Source: Acholeplasma sp. (GTDB lineage: Bacteria; Bacillota_I; Bacilli_A; Acholeplasmatales; UBA5453). Taken from it: a stretch of 64,000 nucleotides of DNA. This document shows positions 1 to 57,708 of the stretch, piece after piece; position 1 is the first letter of the stretch, and each line of letters opens with the position of its first letter. The position numbers and the translations under genes are program-made. The DNA lies in contig JAVBWN010000025.1 in the NCBI GenBank assembly GCA_036677365.1, positions 1-64,000 of the forward strand, in the 5' to 3' direction. The notes below the pieces were generated by a model. That model ran no database searches, was not told the origin of the DNA, and saw only the letters and a list, made by a program, of their open reading frames with translations.

Positions 1-78
1 TTATATTATATGAAAAGCCTAAACTACACGCATCCTTTACACTCAGTTATGTTATAATACAAGAAAAAGGAGACCTCA

Positions 79-648
79 ATGAAACTGTTGGTAGCGACTC
101 AAAACAAGCATAAAAAACAAGAAATTGAAGCCATGTTAAACAAATCCTTTGAAGTGGTTTCATTGGCAGACTTGAATGATGTTGAATCGGTCGATGAAAC
201 AGGCGATAGCTTTTTCGAAAATGCCTTATTGAAAGCCAAACACTATGCCAAAAAACACCAAATGATGACACTGGCTGATGACTCCGGTTTATCGATTGAC
301 CACCTGAATGGTGCACCAGGCATTTACAGTGCCCGTTACTCTGGTGGAACCGATTTAGACAATTTAAACCTCGTATTAGAACAAATGAAAAACGCTCAAA
401 ATCGAGAAGCACATTTTACGTGTGTACTCGTTTTATATGATCCAAAAACCAACGTATACCAAACGTATCAAGGCAAGGTATATGGTTTAATTACCGAAGC
501 AGCAAAAGGTACCCATGGTTTTGGTTATGACCCGATATTCTATGTGCCAGAATATCAACAAACCATGGCTGAAATGTCACCCAAACAAAAGAATCAAATA
601 TCACATCGTGCCATCGCATTACAAGCGCTAAAGGAGGCGTTCAGATGA
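79..648 (+). CDS. rdgB: Non-canonical purine NTP pyrophosphatase (RdgB/HAM1)
   Basis: ATxNxHK N-terminus, ADDSGL, GAPGIYSARY, GFGYDPIF and KNQISHR motifs; RBS AAGGAG. Confidence 0.95.
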   Translation: MKLLVATQNKHKKQEIEAMLNKSFEVVSLADLNDVESVDETGDSFFENALLKAKHYAKKHQMMTLADDSGLSIDHLNGAPGIYSARYSGGTDLDNLNLVLEQMKNAQNREAHFTCVLVLYDPKTNVYQTYQGKVYGLITEAAKGTHGFGYDPIFYVPEYQQTMAEMSPKQKNQISHRAIALQALKEAFR

Positions 649-6721: not shown

Positions 6722-7264
6722 TCATTCTGTTGTATTTTTTTCTTTGTCTTTCTTTTTCTTTTCTTTATTGGTCTCAGTATCCTTAGAAAGCATCATGTGA
6801 GCAAAATAGGCTTTAACTGAAGCGTCAATCGCAAGCTCTAAGGCAACTTTCGTGACTGCTTCATCTGAGGTCAATGCTTTTTCCATGTTGAGCATGGATT
6901 GAATCACAACATCCAAATTACGTTGGTAAACTGTGTACAATTGTTCAATCTCACTGGGGTTAGCTAAAATCGATTTGATGTCTTGAATCGGCATCACACG
7001 TTTTAGGTTCGCAACCATAATCAATGAAGCGATGGCTTCTTTATCATACTTCTTATCCACCGGGTTTTTGATCACATTGTCTTTGACGTAGTTGTTGATC
7101 ATCGAAGCGGTTAAAATATCTTTATCGGATTCTTTAAACGGGGGTAAATGTTTTTTGATATATGTCAATACTTGATCCATATACAAGTCGATTTCAGGTA
7201 GTTTATCATACGACGGTGTTTTAAATACTTGTAAAAGGGCCAATAATTCATTCAGTTCGTTCAT
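6722..7264 (-). CDS. DUF1836 family protein
   Basis: LPxIDLYMDQV and LTxSMINNYVK...KKY motifs. Confidence 0.85.
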   Translation of the reverse strand: MNELNELLALLQVFKTPSYDKLPEIDLYMDQVLTYIKKHLPPFKESDKDILTASMINNYVKDNVIKNPVDKKYDKEAIASLIMVANLKRVMPIQDIKSILANPSEIEQLYTVYQRNLDVVIQSMLNMEKALTSDEAVTKVALELAIDASVKAYFAHMMLSKDTETNKEKKKKDKEKNTTE

Positions 7265-7349
7265 AATATCACCAACCGTATTATAACATAAAAGCGCGTC
7301 TTGTATATAGTATCTTGTAAGACATCAAGTCATTATAAAAACGACGTAT

Positions 7350-8870
7350 TTATAAAAGATGAGAGAAGCCCACCAACGCTTGTTGATACAAACGATAAAC
7401 GATATTGTGTTTTCTAAGTTCACTGAGTGATAGTAACGTAGAAGCAAACATGGCTTCATCTAAATAGGCTTTGATTGCCTTTAAGGACTGTGTTTGATAT
7501 AACCAAACCGTATTCTCAAAGTGTAAATATAAACTTCTAAAATCAAAGTTTGTCGTGCCCACGGTGGCGTGGGTATCATCGACATAAAGAATCTTTGAAT
7601 GGATAAACCCTTGATTGAACTTATGGATTCTCACATTCGGAAATTGGAGCAGCTGTTTATAATAAAACTCAGATACGACCGCCACATATTTCTTGTCAGG
7701 GATCCCTGGAACAATCAAATCAATATCGATGCCTGAGGTCGCTTGAAGGTAAAGTGCGGTTTGGAGTTCTTGGTCAATCACGAAGTATGGGGTCGTAATG
7801 ATGATGCGTTTTTTAGCGGATTGAATCATCAACATATAGGTATGTTTCGTAATCAGGTTACGGTCCAATGGACTATCTGAAAATGGGATGACTAAACCGT
7901 CGGTTTCGGTCGGTGTTGGCGTAAAATTTGACATCGGTTCATAGACTTTGGTTTTGTTTTCCCAGTTCATTAAAAAAATTCTCGTCAAAGCGATGACCGC
8001 GTCACCTTCGATTAAAATTGAAGCGTCTTTCCACAACCCAAACCGTTTAATGACATTGAAGTACTCATCGGCTAAATTCATCCCACCCGTAATCGCTTTT
8101 TGATGGTCAACAATCACAATTTTACGGTGGTCACGGTAATTCATCGATAAATTGACACGGGGTCTAACCGGATTAAAGTTATAGACTTGTATGCCTGCTT
8201 GAGTCAATTTTTTATCAAAGTCGTTCGGTAGATTCATCGAAGAACCAAAATCATCGTAAATGATTCTCACATCGACACCTGATGCGGCTTTTTCTTTTAA
8301 GATTGGAAATATCTGGTCAAATGCTTGTCCAGTATTGATGATGAAATATTCGATATAAATCGATTGTTTCGCCGATTTAAAGAGTTCAATCAGGTAGTTT
8401 AACTTAGCTTCACCGGTAGGGATGAATGTGGAAACCGTGTTTTTGAATACAGGCCAGTGGTCTGTTTGTAAATGTCGAATGATTTTTTGAATGTGGATGT
8501 CATCGACCAATGCGTTTTGATGGTAGGGTTTTAAAGATTCTATGCGGTGAGCATCGATGATTGACATCGCATTCGTGGTTCTTTTGGTTAGGTTGTGATT
8601 TTTAAACAAGATATAGAAAAATCCACCAAACACGGGGACAATCAAAATGGGTATGATCCAAGCAATCTTGTAGATCAAAGGCTCTTCAGAAACCAAAACA
8701 AAAAACACCACGACGAAGGAAAGTACCTCGAGTGTATATAAAACCCATTGACTGTATTTAGAAGCGGATAATACCAACCATCCAAAGACAAACAACTGAA
8801 TCAATATTAAAATCCCAATGATGGTAATGCGATGGGTGATGAATCTTAAGAATCGTGTCATTTGATGCAC
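7350..8870 (-). CDS. cls: Cardiolipin synthase
   Basis: Two PLD HKD motifs (HRKIVIVD, HSKILYVD), N-terminal TM helices. Confidence 0.92.
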   Translation of the reverse strand: MHQMTRFLRFITHRITIIGILILIQLFVFGWLVLSASKYSQWVLYTLEVLSFVVVFFVLVSEEPLIYKIAWIIPILIVPVFGGFFYILFKNHNLTKRTTNAMSIIDAHRIESLKPYHQNALVDDIHIQKIIRHLQTDHWPVFKNTVSTFIPTGEAKLNYLIELFKSAKQSIYIEYFIINTGQAFDQIFPILKEKAASGVDVRIIYDDFGSSMNLPNDFDKKLTQAGIQVYNFNPVRPRVNLSMNYRDHRKIVIVDHQKAITGGMNLADEYFNVIKRFGLWKDASILIEGDAVIALTRIFLMNWENKTKVYEPMSNFTPTPTETDGLVIPFSDSPLDRNLITKHTYMLMIQSAKKRIIITTPYFVIDQELQTALYLQATSGIDIDLIVPGIPDKKYVAVVSEFYYKQLLQFPNVRIHKFNQGFIHSKILYVDDTHATVGTTNFDFRSLYLHFENTVWLYQTQSLKAIKAYLDEAMFASTLLSLSELRKHNIVYRLYQQALVGFSHLL

Positions 8871-52484: not shown

Positions 52485-54203
52485 TTAGATAATAACGACT
52501 TTGTAATTCATAATTTTACCGTACTTTTCGTTATGATAAGTACCTGTTGCTAAAGGTTTTAGTGCTTCAAAAGTATGTCTATTTTCTGAGAATTCTTTAT
52601 CGGTATAATTCTTGGTTCCTGCTACACAGAAGACAATGTTTTCAGGTGTCACTGAGATGATCTTGTAAATGAATGAACGTAATGTATCACTATCAACTTC
52701 CTGGATTGGTTCTAGTAAATTGTTGAGTGTGGTTTCTATCTTTGCAAGTCTTGATCGCGTATCGTAGTTCGTTAAGTACTCACCTTCAAGTTTTCTGATC
52801 TCGGTTTTGTTATTGTGAAGCTGCAAGGTCAGTGATTGGTATTTGCTGTTGAAATCCTCCTGGGAAAGATTAGGATTCTTCACTTGAACATCAATTAGGT
52901 TTGATATCATTCTTTCAAGCTCATCGCCTTGTGTTTGAAGCTTTTGAATCTTGATTTCAACATCGCTAACTCGAATGGTCGACTTGATGATTTTCTGTAT
53001 GTTTGGGATGATATCCTTTTCCTGTAAAAACACCTCGTTGAGCATTTTCACAGTCGCACCTTCAATCATCTCTTGGTAAGTAGCTTTAGCCTTACAGTGG
53101 GCTTTACCGTCGATGTAACCACCACATTGTTGCATAACTCTTTGAGCTGGTGTACCGTAATTCCAATAGCGTCTTTTCAAGGTTCGTCCACATTCAGAAC
53201 AAACGATAAATGCTGAGAATGGATAAGTGACATTGTACTTGGCTAGGTTCTTATCCTTTCCAACTTTTACCTTGCTACGATCCTCTCTGATCCTTTGTGC
53301 GAGGAGGAATGTTTCTCTATCGATTATTGCCTCGTGTGCATTCTCGGTATGATACATTGGAGCGAGTTCTTTATTCTTTACTTTCTTATGTGAAAGGTAA
53401 TCAACTGTCAGTGTTTTCTGCTGAACCAAATCGCCGATGTATTTTTCGTTCTTTAGGATAACTGCAACGGTGGACATACTCCACTTGGATGCACCAGCAC
53501 CCGTGGTTGCTCCTATGGATTCCATGTGTTTTGCAATCTTCATCGGTCCGATACCACTCACATACATTTGGAATATCTCACGGACGATTTTAGCTTCTTC
53601 AGGAACAACGATTAAGTTGCCACTTCGTTTGTCTTTGGTATAACCTAAGAACCTGTTGTGATTCACAATTGGAACGCTATTGTTGAAGCGCTTTTGAACA
53701 TTCCATTTGACGTTCTCGCTCACGTTTCTAGCTTCCTCTTGGGCGATGGATGACATGATGGTTAATAAGAAGTCCACCTTTGGGTCTGAGGAGTAGATGT
53801 TTTCTTTTTCAAAGAAGATCTCAACATTGATTGCTCGCATCTCTCTGATGTAGTTTAAGCAATCAACTGTGTTTCTAGCGAATCGTGAGATTGACTTCGT
53901 CATGATCAAATCGATTTCACCACGCTTTGCAGCATCCATCATATTATTGAACTGTTTTCTGTGCTTGGTGGAAGTTCCGCTGATGCCCTCGTCTGCATAG
54001 ATACCACAGAATGTCCATTCAGGGTTATTTTGAATCCTTTCGGTGTATTCGTCGGTTTGAGCGATGTAACTCGTTTTCTGTTCCTCATTATCGGTGGACA
54101 CTCGAACGTAGGCACACACACGTTTTTTGAGGTTCTTGGGTATGGTTCCTGATAAATCGAACACAGGTTTTGGTTGTATGACTCTGACTTGTTTGTTTTG
54201 CAT
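52485..54203 (-). CDS. Large serine recombinase (integrase)
   Basis: AYVRVST catalytic Ser, YADEGISGT, KSISRFARN, recombinase domain, CSECG Zn ribbon, coiled coil. Confidence 0.95.
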   Translation of the reverse strand: MQNKQVRVIQPKPVFDLSGTIPKNLKKRVCAYVRVSTDNEEQKTSYIAQTDEYTERIQNNPEWTFCGIYADEGISGTSTKHRKQFNNMMDAAKRGEIDLIMTKSISRFARNTVDCLNYIREMRAINVEIFFEKENIYSSDPKVDFLLTIMSSIAQEEARNVSENVKWNVQKRFNNSVPIVNHNRFLGYTKDKRSGNLIVVPEEAKIVREIFQMYVSGIGPMKIAKHMESIGATTGAGASKWSMSTVAVILKNEKYIGDLVQQKTLTVDYLSHKKVKNKELAPMYHTENAHEAIIDRETFLLAQRIREDRSKVKVGKDKNLAKYNVTYPFSAFIVCSECGRTLKRRYWNYGTPAQRVMQQCGGYIDGKAHCKAKATYQEMIEGATVKMLNEVFLQEKDIIPNIQKIIKSTIRVSDVEIKIQKLQTQGDELERMISNLIDVQVKNPNLSQEDFNSKYQSLTLQLHNNKTEIRKLEGEYLTNYDTRSRLAKIETTLNNLLEPIQEVDSDTLRSFIYKIISVTPENIVFCVAGTKNYTDKEFSENRHTFEALKPLATGTYHNEKYGKIMNYKVVII

Positions 54204-54259
54204 TATTTTTCCTCCTTGGTTAGTACATATACATCACTCTAAAAGCAATGAATAGCAAG

Positions 54260-54442
54260 TCAATTCTCAACTATTTCATTGCTTTCTGATGTAATAAAGG
54301 TTATGTTGTATTGTTGTTTCAATCTGGACAGGATTTCTTTGTATTCACTTTCAGTGAGAAGCTTTTCCATATAAAGGTTAAAAGCTATCCTAACTGAGTA
54401 ATTGTATTTCATTTGATCGGTAACGATCGTAGCCTTATTCAT
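54260..54442 (-). CDS. Small SHOCT-like protein upstream of the recombinase
   Basis: 60 aa, L..EKLLTESEY..I pattern; RBS AAAGGA; usual position before Bacillota serine recombinases. Confidence 0.65.
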   Translation of the reverse strand: MNKATIVTDQMKYNYSVRIAFNLYMEKLLTESEYKEILSRLKQQYNITFITSESNEIVEN

Positions 54443-54462
54443 TGGTATCCTTTCTAAAGGAT

Positions 54463-54602
54463 AAAAAGAAAAAAAGGAATTGCCATAGCAATCCCTAGGG
54501 AAAGTGCGTGCCTTATGAGCACTGAGTTTGTGACGCTGCCTAACCTACCAACAGTAGTTTATCACTAACTAAAATTTAAAACTACATGCCAGTGGCACAA
54601 AC
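54463..54602 (-). ncRNA. Candidate structured antisense RNA in the repressor 3' trailer
   Basis: Stems 54526-38/54590-602, 54554-60/54579-85, 54503-07/54519-23; minus-strand terminator GGGAUUGC-UAUG-GCAAUUCC-U7; complementary to 55938-55998. Confidence 0.55.
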
Positions 54603-54614
54603 GTATTGTAAGGT

Positions 54615-55211
54615 TTATAAGAAGTTAGGAATTTGAAAATTCTTTGAAATTGTACCTGCATGAATACCATGTATAATAAGGTTTTCTGACTGTGCTTTTG
54701 TAAAGTTAAACATTTCATCAAGAATAAAGAAACAACCTCCGCCATCTATGTTGTAAAATATCTTAGAGACATAATGCCGGTTATAGTAGGAAAAGAGCAT
54801 CACTTGATTCTTGTGATAGGTTTGAGTGCGCCAGAAGAAGTCAATTCTATGCTCGCTATATCTCACCAGGATGACATCATCGTTCTCTGCATTGATATTA
54901 TAAGGCAGGACTTGCTTGAGTTCATTATCTACCATCTCGTAGGTCCTAAATGCAAGCGTGTGACTAATCCTGTTCGAGAATGGATTACCGGTTATGTGAT
55001 CAATCGAAACACCATAGAACTGTGATAGCTTAATTAAATCGTGTATTCCAATCTCCCTGGAGCCATTCTCGTAATTGAGATAGCCTTGGCGGGATTTTTT
55101 TATGACGCTAGCTACCTGGGTTGTTGATAAGTTGTGTGAGACACGTAAACGCTTCAAATTCTCACAGATGAACAAATTATTAAAATCATCTTCGGTGTTT
55201 AATTTAACCAT
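54615..55211 (-). CDS. XRE-family (CI-like) repressor
   Basis: ENLKRLR...TTQVA...SRQGYLNYENGSRE HTH; ATG after GAGGTGA; divergent from the Cro-like gene. Confidence 0.85.
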   Translation of the reverse strand: MVKLNTEDDFNNLFICENLKRLRVSHNLSTTQVASVIKKSRQGYLNYENGSREIGIHDLIKLSQFYGVSIDHITGNPFSNRISHTLAFRTYEMVDNELKQVLPYNINAENDDVILVRYSEHRIDFFWRTQTYHKNQVMLFSYYNRHYVSKIFYNIDGGGCFFILDEMFNFTKAQSENLIIHGIHAGTISKNFQIPNFL

Positions 55212-55446
55212 GGAGGTCACCTCTTCACATTCGTATATTTTCGCAAGAATGATACCACAACAAATGTTTACAAGTCAATGTTACTGATGACATTAACTAT
55301 CAATTTAATCGTAAAAATGAGGGTTTTCTGCTATTTGAAAACTCTTTTTGTTGCTGTTGTGATTTCGCTTCTCCAAGTTATTTTTTGACGGATTGCTTTC
55401 TCATATAATCAAGGCACCATCGAAATTGACGAAAGGAGGAAAGCAC

Positions 55447-55740
55447 ATGCCTGTCAACGGAACAGGGAAGGTTCAAAATCGCGACCATGCCACACCACTA
55501 CCAAGGTTTTATCTGATCGAACACAGAAACAATCTGGGTTTATCGGTTGAAGAAGTATCAAGGATGTTAAATCTCTCGCACTATTACTATTACCAAATAG
55601 AAAGTGGTCGAAGGGGTCAAAAACTACCGATTCCACTCGTGTTAGAACTTATAAATGTTCTACAGATCGATGCGATCAAATTTCTAGAACTAGAAAGTGA
55701 ACATGTAAAGAAACATAACGAATTCAATCGGATGAAGTAA
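55447..55740 (+). CDS. Cro-like HTH protein
   Basis: LIEHR..LGLSVEEVS..LNLS..YYYQIESGRR; RBS AAAGGAGG. Confidence 0.8.
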   Translation: MPVNGTGKVQNRDHATPLPRFYLIEHRNNLGLSVEEVSRMLNLSHYYYYQIESGRRGQKLPIPLVLELINVLQIDAIKFLELESEHVKKHNEFNRMK

Positions 55741-55806
55741 AAAAAGACGCCAAGCTTGTATTTGGGGTACAAACCTGGCCAGTAGAAAAGCGACCGCCAT
55801 TCTACA
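55739..55806 (-). ncRNA. Candidate ~70-nt counter-transcribed RNA
   Basis: Minus-strand TTGTTA-16-TATAAT (55840-55813), two hairpins that pair better on the minus strand, U7 end. Confidence 0.6.
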
Positions 55807-55858
55807 ATTCCGATTATACAACTCATTTCAAAAATAACAAACCATTGAAAGGATAAAA

Positions 55859-56779
55859 ATGGACGACAAGGGCTTTTTTCGAGAGATTATCGATATTTAT
55901 ATCCAAAGATTCGATATCAAAGAAAACACCAAGCGTTCCTACGGGAAGATGCTTGCCCAGTTCGCTGAGTTCGTTGATGGCTTGCCTAACCTACCAACCA
56001 GGCAAGATGTCATGGCTTATCGTGAACAACTAAAGTCCAGGCTAAGAGCTGCATCCGTTCAAAAACACATTGTAGTCATAAGGGGATTTTATCGATGGTA
56101 CTACATTGAAGGATTTGGACCCAATGCAGCTGAAGGTGTAAAAGGTATGAAGATTGAATCCGACTTTAAGAGAGAATCATTATCTCTTGAAGCGGCTATT
56201 AAACTATTAAACAGAGCTAAACGCTATGCGAGTAAGAGCATCATTGGAAAAAGAGATCATGCTCTGATCGCACTATTATTAACAACCGGATTAAGAACGA
56301 TTGAAGTGGAAAGAGCAGATGTGGATGATATCAGCTTCGTGGATGAAACCAAGGTGTTATACATCATGGGTAAAGGTCACGATGAGAAGGATGCGTATGT
56401 CAAACTCTCTCCAGAAGTGTATGGCTTGATTGAAGAATATTTGATCGAGCGACAAGATGAATATAAACCACTCTTCATTAATCATACGAAACCCTATCAG
56501 GGAACAAGACTAAGAACACGAATGATTAGTATGGTGGTTAAAGAAATGCTCAGAGATATCGGGATCGATGATCCCAAGTATTCTGCCCATAGCCTTAGGC
56601 ATACAGCAGCTTCTTTAGCGCTGGACTTGGGTGGAGATTTAGATGCAGCACAGCAATTAATGCGCCATAAAGACATATCTACCACGAAGATTTATGCTCA
56701 CCGATTGAGCAAAGCTAAGAATCATCTTGAGTGGCAGATAAGCACAGCGCTATTCCAAACTACCAAAAAGAAAAAGTGA
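55859..56779 (+). CDS. Tyrosine recombinase (XerC/D-like)
   Basis: GLR, GKG, HSLRH, MRH, TKIY: complete R-K-H-R-H-Y catalytic set; SAM-like N-domain. Confidence 0.93.
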   Translation: MDDKGFFREIIDIYIQRFDIKENTKRSYGKMLAQFAEFVDGLPNLPTRQDVMAYREQLKSRLRAASVQKHIVVIRGFYRWYYIEGFGPNAAEGVKGMKIESDFKRESLSLEAAIKLLNRAKRYASKSIIGKRDHALIALLLTTGLRTIEVERADVDDISFVDETKVLYIMGKGHDEKDAYVKLSPEVYGLIEEYLIERQDEYKPLFINHTKPYQGTRLRTRMISMVVKEMLRDIGIDDPKYSAHSLRHTAASLALDLGGDLDAAQQLMRHKDISTTKIYAHRLSKAKNHLEWQISTALFQTTKKKK

Positions 56780-56790
56780 AGGGAAAACCT

Positions 56791-57534
56791 ATGATTAGAG
56801 AGTTTGAACACAATGCCTATGGCAAAGTTCGTGCCACGATAGTGGATGACGAACCTTGCTTCAACCTGAAGGATCTCTGTCGCATGTTTGAGATTAAAAG
56901 CGTATCAGAAGTCCGGACCAAACTGAACGACACCAGTATTAAGCTTGTGAGCGTTCCCCACGATAAAACACATCAAAATATGTTCTTTGTTACCGCAGAC
57001 CACCTATCTACCATATTCTTCCAATCCAAGCGCAAAGACGCAGAAGTGATTGGTGATTGGTTGTATCGAACTGTATTACCTCAGCTCATCCGTTATGGCA
57101 TCTATCAGATAGAGGATTTTGAGAATCCAGATAAGGTAATCGAGTTCCTGGATGAGTTTCAAGAATTGAAAGTAAGAGCAAACGTCCTAGAGACCACACT
57201 CAAAATGAATACTCCAAAGATTAAAGCTATTGATAACTTATTAGGCACGACGAGTTGTGTGGATCTAGATATGGTTCATGAAGTGATTCGCTTCAAAAAT
57301 ATCGGTCGTGACGTCCTACTAAAGATTCTAAGAACTGCACATGTTTTAGATGAGCAGAACATACCGTTTCAAGACTTTTGTGATAAGAAGTATTTCAGAG
57401 TTGTTGAAGCGAAAGTGGTATCGGGTGGAACTGTTATCAAGTCAACCAAAACATACGTCTATAAAGGCGGAATTACATTCATCGAAAGGATCCTAAAAGA
57501 ATACGATGGAAACAAACAACGGAAAGAAAAATGA
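56791..57534 (+). CDS. Phage antirepressor (BRO-N plus KilA-C/ANT-like domain)
   Basis: FE...YGKVR...DDEP.F..KDLC, W...TVLP..IR.G.Y BRO-N; C-terminal GR..L..ILR...N.P.Q...YF.V. Confidence 0.85.
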   Translation: MIREFEHNAYGKVRATIVDDEPCFNLKDLCRMFEIKSVSEVRTKLNDTSIKLVSVPHDKTHQNMFFVTADHLSTIFFQSKRKDAEVIGDWLYRTVLPQLIRYGIYQIEDFENPDKVIEFLDEFQELKVRANVLETTLKMNTPKIKAIDNLLGTTSCVDLDMVHEVIRFKNIGRDVLLKILRTAHVLDEQNIPFQDFCDKKYFRVVEAKVVSGGTVIKSTKTYVYKGGITFIERILKEYDGNKQRKEK

Positions 57535-57697
57535 GAATGTCTATAACATCAATGAGCTTCAAGAGATACTCCAAGTCAAAAGACCGACACTTTTAAAGTA
57601 TATCAAGACTAAGAAAATCAAAGCTTTCAAGGTTGGGAACCAATGGCGAGTCACTCAAGAACACTTAGATGAATTCATTCAAAGAAACATGAAGTAG
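57506..57697 (+). CDS. Excisionase-like HTH_17 protein
   Basis: YNINEL.EILQV...TL..YIK..KIKAFKVG.QWRV. Confidence 0.85.
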   Translation: METNNGKKNENVYNINELQEILQVKRPTLLKYIKTKKIKAFKVGNQWRVTQEHLDEFIQRNMK

Positions 57698-57708
57698 AGA
57701 CAACTGTT

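Follow-up and report, generated by a model that had tools for sequence, protein, structure and literature searches.

Small RNAs that act in phage immunity are known from a handful of enterobacterial phages. In the P4 CI and N15 CA systems, immunity is exerted by a small RNA that is processed from the same operon, pairs with short repeated targets in the early transcript and brings about premature transcription termination on leaders, and the c4 RNA of P1 pairs around a ribosome-binding site (RBS), at its a′/b′ sites, on the same transcript from which it is cut. The sar RNA of P22 and the OOP RNA of lambda are read from the strand opposite their targets and are fully complementary to them by construction; Rfam holds models of both c4 and sar. 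Trans-encoded RNAs of the RybB/OmrA type are built from a single-stranded 5′-end seed, a hairpin and a terminator, and the complementarity of RNA I and RNA II in the par system of pAD1 comes from direct repeats that are read in opposite directions; we know of no phage recombinase target described for either. Here we describe a locus at the left end of a prophage in a 64-kb stretch of Acholeplasma sp. DNA (contig JAVBWN010000025.1, positions 1 to 64,000; the window), where the non-coding trailer behind a repressor gene carries a predicted small RNA gene, sRNA1, whose product is probably a trans-encoded antisense RNA of the prophage immunity region, acting on the message of a Xer-like tyrosine recombinase.

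In the main text of a review, c4 (immI) of P1 and P7 is presented as a small temperate-phage immunity RNA that base-pairs with an early message and silences an operon holding the antirepressor, its complementary bases being few, different between related phages and decisive for immunity specificity (PMC12197685). The same main text describes P22 sar and lambda OOP as terminator-ended antisense RNAs of about 70–77 nt from lysis-lysogeny regions, OOP leading to RNase III-dependent decay of its target, and has no occurrence of the words recombinase or integrase (PMC12197685). A search of literature listings found neither a phage RNA directed against the message of a recombinase or integrase nor a phage regulatory RNA from the Acholeplasma-like lineage. 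To our knowledge, this lineage is without Hfq.

Homology Between the Trailer and the Recombinase Gene

The trailer shares an exact 16-mer with the tyrosine recombinase gene (54537–54552 and 55983–55998), of which the 64 kb hold no third copy even when two mismatches are allowed; 0.03 matches were expected, and two were reached in none of 100 shuffles. This unique pair had been picked out by a first-pass annotation made from the sequence alone, together with the surrounding block 54494–54552, described as a diverged copy of 55938–55998, and both observations hold, the block matching at 48 positions over 59/61 nt with small indels. Homology reaches beyond what that annotation gave: local alignment of the whole trailer with the recombinase gene scores 81, against 34.1 ± 5.1 and a maximum of 54 in 300 dinucleotide shuffles, and covers 54453–54610 and 55902–56074. 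In the protein, the 16-mer corresponds to LPNLPT, which no other N-terminal motif of the recombinase family surpasses in conservation. The trailer clearly derives from a partial copy of the recombinase 5′ region.

A further match, the 12-mer AAAGGATAAAAA, had been read as weaker evidence that the trailer also corresponds to the recombinase RBS region. The identity is exact (54456–54467 and 55848–55859); its functional value did not stand, as the match recurs in only seven near-identical relatives among 35 loci checked, is absent from one locus (L015) with an identical RBS, and on the minus strand lies past the terminator stem in the window, and the 12-mer was rejected as a second target. Half of the match is accounted for by a perfect 8+8 palindrome, TATCCTTT CT AAAGGATA (54446–54463). 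The palindrome overlaps the RBS of a small open reading frame (ORF) right 3′ of the terminator U tract, and it could hide that RBS in read-through transcripts.

Co-variation of the RNA and Its Target in Related Prophages

Relatives were collected through a recombinase search that returned a family at 45–99% identity; 28 members were aligned, and the alignment was used to fetch DNA from species-representative genomes, in which 247 stretches matched and 119 were confirmed, the best 80 being kept as loci (cited here by their L numbers). The loci come mostly from Acholeplasmataceae, Mycoplasmatota or Bacillota metagenome-assembled genomes, with few cultured strains. In a tblastn comparison with eight window proteins, the order serine recombinase(s), repressor, cro, tyrosine recombinase, HTH_17 gene and replication gene was found in most of L001–L062, and a repressor of the window type is present in 29 of the 80 loci.

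Co-variation of trailer and target in homologous elements, which the first-pass annotation had named as a check on its reading, was strongly positive, and complementarity is kept in relatives by compensatory change. The trailer motif changes with the gene of its own locus: it is CCT-AAC-CTA-CC in the window, with CCG in both copies of L019, and trailer and gene share TCA...ACC in L013, ACTAATTTACCAA in L018, CTAAACCACC in L020/L024 and GATTACTAAGCCAA in L047, with at least 14 different seed/target variants by our own count. In 23 of the 29 loci whose repressor is homologous, the top local alignment of the trailer with its own recombinase gene lies at +79..+161 of that gene. Where the repressor is unrelated, exact matches of 10–18 nt to +124..+160 of the locus's own gene are found, mostly 1.2–1.6 kb upstream and 2.3 kb upstream in L038.

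The same pairing emerges from a blind scan, in which an extended −10 element followed by a terminator within 35–120 nt was sought on the minus strand upstream of the recombinase gene, complementarity being left unused. The scan recovers the unit at the syntenic place and few others. Its first bases hold a perfect complement of at least 8 nt to the locus's own target in 33 of 71 loci, compared with 25 of 437 non-self pairs. In a set of 23 blind candidates left after dereplication, the first 35 nt form a duplex with the own target at a mean energy of −26.8, against −15.9 ± 0.98 for permuted partners. None of 20,000 permutations equals this, and in 14 candidates the own target is placed first; the low ranks belong to stray candidates and to L022, L027 and L051. 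The pairing register relative to the −10 element is near constant (index sum 144–147). Bases 7–16 after the −10 are paired in 20–23 of 23 elements, each position showing three to five Watson-Crick pair types; base 6 pairs in 14 elements, and bases 1–5 are mostly unpaired, so that pairing begins where a transcript would begin, the seventh base being at the usual start-site spacing. Altogether 282 of 322 cells of this pair table are paired, against 174.7 ± 11.5 and a maximum of 220 in 5000 shuffles.

Specificity for the own target extends to the body of the RNA, both against +30..125 of the gene (values of −21.9 and −16.1) and against +140..235 (−20.0 and −16.5), with 0 of 10,000 permutations as good in each case, and is not seen for two control regions of the recombinase gene (2759 and 1415 of 10,000). 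In many loci, colinear homology to the recombinase gene spans the entire RNA and enters the terminator. In a second subfamily (L035, L043, L053, L062), a second block pairs with +145..+160 of the target in permuted order, which a colinear or simple duplication cannot give. This joint change of RNA and recombinase across dozens of related prophages points to an RNA layer of phage immunity control that would be previously undescribed.

The antirepressor gene is absent from a large subfamily (L028–L039 and others) that keeps the pairing of RNA and recombinase, and the conserved target is therefore the recombinase message and not ant. The first-pass annotation had proposed silencing of a recombinase-antirepressor operon; its recombinase half is retained, and the antirepressor is dropped as a conserved target. 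Its broader statement, of a trailer-derived minus-strand RNA antisense to the recombinase message, is supported.

The Predicted Small RNA Gene

Because almost every relative has a conserved extended −10 element 3–7 nt upstream of the complementary block, sRNA1, about 85 nt long and read from the minus strand, is likely to be a gene in its own right; that it is transcribed, and where exactly its 5′ end falls, we infer from these signals. A TGnTAnnnT-type motif was found at this distance in 27 of 36 loci in which the block had been located via an exact match; in the other nine the anchor match was not the seed block, and the search window therefore missed the promoter. The order of promoter, seed, hairpin and terminator is kept beside a different repressor in L033, and further units, with a weaker promoter or an interrupted seed, were recognized by eye in L011, L012, L017, L018, L030, L035, L036/L037, L046 and L047. 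In L007, an IS30-type composite transposon puts the repressor gene 4.3 kb from the unit, whose promoter, seed and terminator are intact. The unit is absent from loci that have at most 41% recombinase identity and no synteny. A blastn search of 54200–57700 in distant mode against 50,697 deposited phage records gave no match, and an Rfam cmscan of 53900–56300 at E ≤ 10 gave nothing beyond five chance-level matches to unrelated families.

The consensus folds of the two subfamilies share an unpaired 5′ seed, a small hairpin and a terminator, with several G-U pairs that would be mismatches on the other strand. The seed is largely free in the centroid fold of the window RNA started at 54549 and is unpaired in the subfamily-2 consensus structure; in that of subfamily 1, its first bases pair only with bases just past the −10 element, at or before the predicted start. 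The internal hairpin is kept with one-sided changes (G-C to G-U, C-G to U-G) in L019, L045 and L007, and the G-U pairs of the terminator stem are compatible with the minus strand only. The minus-strand intrinsic terminator of the first-pass annotation was thus recovered, and its placement of the 16-mer in an internal loop was not: the complementary bases are the unpaired 5′ end of the predicted RNA, and the two stems said to enclose them (54526–38/54590–602 and 54554–60/54579–85) use bases upstream of its start.

Between cro and the recombinase gene, on the minus strand at 55739–55822, a second small-RNA-like unit was noted. Its extended −10 element, TTGTATAAT (55821–55813), is invariant in five of five relatives, and two hairpins lie behind it, at 55805–55782 and 55779–55749, the latter followed by a U tract; its G-U pairs fit the minus strand, and two pairs are compensatory. 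It would be antisense to the leader of the recombinase message and is absent where the gap between cro and the recombinase gene is short (L007, L008).

The Target Site in the Recombinase Message

The first 53 nt of sRNA1 are predicted to pair with the recombinase message at −63.1 kcal/mol, against −30.4 ± 4.1 and a minimum of −45.6 for 500 shuffled RNAs, and the recombinase target is the best seed site in the 64 kb, the RNA's own template aside. The first-pass annotation had placed the target in the loop of a hairpin, and the minimum-energy fold and the centroid agree on it. In L001, whose target segment reads as that of the window, the target has an unpaired probability of 0.81 against a background of 0.42; its accessibility exceeds that of the median 10-nt window in 18 of 20 loci, and it sits in similar hairpin loops in several relatives, not in all. 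It occupies +125..+140 of the coding region and does not lie at the RBS.

Organization of the Prophage Region

The coordinates of the locus are collected in Table 1. The tyrosine recombinase matches Pfam PF00589 with a SAM-like N domain and is an integrase by PHROG annotation, XerD (1a0p) being its best solved relative (E 1.2e-17). The columns R146, K172, H244, R247, H270 and Y279, which we take to be the catalytic R-K-H-x-x-R-H-Y residues, are invariant in the 28 sequences of the family.

Table 1. Predicted and annotated features of the sRNA1 locus (window coordinates).
Feature	Position	Strand	Remarks
Large serine recombinase gene	52485–54203	−	Comes after host-like genes
SHOCT-like small ORF, 60 codons	54260–54442	−	SHOCT_2, E 2e-4, under the curated cut-off; directly 3′ of the terminator
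Non-coding trailer, 172 nt	54443–54614		Between the SHOCT-like ORF and the repressor gene
Predicted sRNA1, about 80–87 nt	54463–54549	−	5′ seed, hairpin, terminator; start placed from the −10 element and the sharp onset of pairing
Intrinsic terminator	54465–54496	−	Stem 54496–54475, then U tract
sRNA1 internal hairpin, 5 pairs	54508–54522	−	From the fold and the subfamily-1 consensus
Seed region, 16-mer	54537–54552	−	Conserved 10-nt seed 54549–54540
Extended −10 promoter, TGATAAACT	54556–54564	−	TGnTAnnnT-type motif
Repressor gene, HTH_3, 201 aa	54615–55220	−	Pfam/PHROG annotation
cro-like HTH gene	55447–55740	+	Divergent from the repressor gene; opens the early operon carrying the target
Xer-like tyrosine recombinase gene, 306 aa	55859–56779	+	First gene 3′ of cro
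Extended pairing region	55942–55996	+	Predicted with the first 53 nt of sRNA1
mRNA hairpin, target in 12-nt loop	55981–56006	+	Arms 55981–55987/56000–56006; in minimum-energy fold and centroid
Target site, 16-mer over codons 42–47	55983–55998	+	55986–55995 (codons 43–46) pair with the seed
Antirepressor (Bro-N/KilAC), excisionase-like HTH_17 and replication initiator genes			3′ of the tyrosine recombinase gene, in that order

Most relatives (L008–L013, L022–L029 and many others) have two tandem large serine recombinase genes; the window has one. A 23-nt direct repeat, 87% identical, occurs in the window at 54278–54300, just upstream of a promoter-like site of the serine integrase gene, and at 55392–55414, among the promoters of repressor and cro; the repeat may be an operator common to both places. 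The insertion in L007 (2519–6551) has two IS30-type transposase genes flanking a GC-richer cargo that includes a 293-codon ORF; the small-RNA unit lies there at about 2320–2425 and the repressor gene at 6815–7411. L026 (CP017949.1), deposited as a complete plasmid of 93,078 bp, carries two serine recombinases, the repressor, the small-RNA unit, the tyrosine recombinase and the antirepressor; phage-plasmids may occur in the family, and a role of the Xer-like enzyme in multimer resolution would agree with that. Matches in two pieces, possibly through a frameshift or an assembly error, are given by the antirepressor gene of L014 (8934–9673) and the recombinase gene of L015 (6036–6975), and in L015 a run of N lies inside the small-RNA unit.

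Proposed Mechanism and Rival Explanations

The reading that we prefer begins with a partial copy of the recombinase 5′ region that would have come under reading from the opposite strand. The extended −10 element would start an RNA of about 85 nt near 54549, of which the first 10–16 bases would be single-stranded and are perfectly complementary to codons 42–47 of the recombinase mRNA and the next ~40 are imperfectly complementary to codons 28–42, a short hairpin and the intrinsic terminator ending the molecule. The RNA would be produced in the lysogen, both from its own promoter and, probably, as the end of repressor transcripts, and would pair at the exposed loop with any early transcript running from cro through the recombinase gene. 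The resulting long duplex would inactivate the message, most likely by double-strand-specific cleavage of the RNase III type, by stalled translation or by both, with polar loss of the genes downstream of the recombinase. Immunity would thereby gain a second layer, one based on RNA and with its specificity determined by seed and target. The layout of the locus, the conservation of promoter and terminator and the co-variation are read from the sequences themselves; repression rather than activation, and the nuclease step, we infer: since the target lies well inside the coding region, duplex-dependent cleavage or a block of elongation would apply in place of a block of initiation.

Several results weigh against an antisense RNA of this kind or are neutral to it. 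With its target 125 nt inside the coding region, the usual block of translation initiation is inapplicable, and the target codons show no significant reduction of synonymous change (64/162, or 0.40, against 1057/2278, or 0.46; p = 0.10). The sRNA1 promoter is a motif call only, and inspection of the window subfamily revealed no convincing −35 element. The fold energy of sRNA1 alone is no better than that of shuffles (z = −0.84), and the registers of the pair table were set, within the range of 144–147, from each locus's best match. Substitutions that preserve G-U pairing, put forward in the first-pass annotation, do exist at some positions, and there is no excess of them: the block has three compatible changes against two incompatible ones, and the family as a whole 15 compatible against 15 incompatible transitions, an uninformative outcome of a test whose ungapped extensions ran into non-homologous flanks; within seeds, the count by eye is 4 to 1, too few to weigh. 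The host is known only from metagenome-assembled genomes. L014, L016 and L027 have the synteny and no convincing seed, the first two (Acholeplasma laidlawii 8195) having a terminator-ended trailer unit with only 6–8 nt matches to its own target, and the blind-scan units of L022 and L051 rank their own targets 11th and 16th of 23, L022 retaining an 8-nt perfect match.

It is unlikely that the RNA is solely the 3′ untranslated tail of the repressor mRNA, lacking its own promoter and meeting the target through a kissing contact between an internal loop and the target loop. From the repressor stop to the seed there is no strong terminator, the sole one before sRNA1 being a weak terminator-like hairpin at 54599–54585, so repressor transcripts should carry the antisense segment, and in a 155-nt fold the 16-mer is partly unpaired. 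Yet the extended −10 element is fixed next to the seed in both subfamilies, loci with unrelated repressors included, the bases ahead of the seventh are not complementary, the L007 unit is intact far from its repressor gene, and the stem 54554–60/54579–85, which overlaps the promoter, is missing from L045 and L007 on inspection by eye. What stands of the first-pass description is an antisense RNA from the trailer, and what falls is the RNA as a mere repressor tail; the repressor transcript may run into the small RNA region, and such read-through may add to sRNA1. Quite unlikely, in our judgement, is a unit that serves chiefly as leader and attenuator of the SHOCT-like ORF, possibly an excision factor of the serine integrase, in which the early recombinase transcript, by pairing with the unit, would disrupt the terminator and activate the ORF at the onset of lytic transcription. 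In the window as in relatives, the U tract and the ORF start codon are only about 20–35 nt apart, a distance too short for the ORF to have a promoter to itself, so that its transcription must pass through the terminator; relatives, too, have a small ORF with a strong RBS behind the terminator, recombinase homology reaches the terminator 5′ arm and loop, and the part made up of body and terminator is specific to its own target. Complementarity, however, peaks at the 5′ end, a long way from the terminator, and is weak in the terminator stem; a separate promoter-like site (54263–54236, minus strand) belongs to the serine integrase gene, and the small ORF has no PHROG match and a Pfam match below the cut-off.

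The first-pass annotation had itself offered two alternatives, direct-repeat recombination sites and a decayed duplication, and both are contradicted. As DNA sites, the two copies would be direct repeats at which a tyrosine or serine recombinase deletes or circularises the 1.45-kb repressor/cro cassette. The 10–18 bp of identity do resemble the common cores of attachment sites, with a recombinase gene at hand and an excisionase-like HTH_17 gene further along; the reading is nevertheless highly improbable, because the identity is bounded on one side by the conserved promoter and begins at the expected transcript start, imperfect similarity with indels continues for about 70 nt, and the second blocks of subfamily 2 are permuted. 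An inverted-repeat search found none at 54537–54552, the 7-bp arms at 55981–87/56000–06 have no trailer counterpart, recombination would cost the recombinase gene its first ~42 codons and its promoter, and the deleted form was seen in none of the 80 loci. We regard as extremely improbable a functionless remnant of partial gene duplication or a short plus-strand peptide gene, for which one can cite the homology of the whole trailer to recombinase codons ~15–72 and a plus-strand frame over the motif that is open in some loci, such as L007. A neutral remnant would not follow its own gene through so many seed/target variants, and the tracking holds down to 39–49% recombinase identity and across unrelated repressors. 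The peptide was rejected, its frame being broken by stops in L008, L021 and L024 when these sequences are read. A 17-codon plus-strand ORF, MSTEFVTLPNLPTVVYH (54508–54561), echoes the recombinase N-terminus, and comparable frames are open in L007, L019 and L045.

The preferred antisense reading also has an extension, a two-way RNA switch, that we consider unlikely. In the lysogen, sRNA1 would destroy stray early transcripts, its fast-changing seed deciding which related phages are excluded; upon induction, the early transcript, by then abundant, would pair with the nascent leader, open its terminator and turn on the small ORF next to the serine integrase gene, a candidate excision factor. If true, a single duplicated gene fragment would couple immunity, commitment and excision, and phages of wall-less bacteria would have an RNA-based heteroimmunity.

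If sRNA1 acts as an antisense RNA, it would represent a large, previously unrecorded family of immunity RNAs in Acholeplasma-like bacteria and a clear case of a target gene giving rise, through a partial copy, to its own regulatory RNA. Its built-in record of co-evolution would define pairing rules without experiment, and the seeds could be used to type immunity groups of these prophages. It would also draw attention to an unexplained gene, a Xer-like recombinase standing first among the early genes of phages that already integrate by serine recombinase and evidently important or dangerous enough to have an RNA brake of its own.

Comparison With Described Systems

Like P1 c4, sRNA1 would be a small RNA of an immunity region that pairs with an early message. 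It differs from c4 in that it has a promoter and a terminator to itself, that its gene lies 1.4 kb away on the opposite strand, that its target is placed 125 nt inside the recombinase coding region instead of at the RBS before ant, and that it is present in a subfamily without any antirepressor. With sar and OOP it would have in common that it is a short antisense RNA ended by a terminator. Unlike those of sar and OOP, the gene of sRNA1 is a separate, diverged copy of its target, so that complementarity must be kept by co-evolution, as the comparison of relatives shows. With P4 CI and N15 CA it would share immunity through a small RNA pairing with an early transcript; theirs act through termination, whereas no such terminator was seen downstream of the sRNA1 target. 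A seed at the very 5′ end with a hairpin and a terminator behind it is a layout that sRNA1 is predicted to share with the RybB/OmrA-type RNAs. The RybB/OmrA-type RNAs and the par RNAs regulate host or toxin messages, whereas the predicted target of sRNA1 is the message of a phage recombinase.

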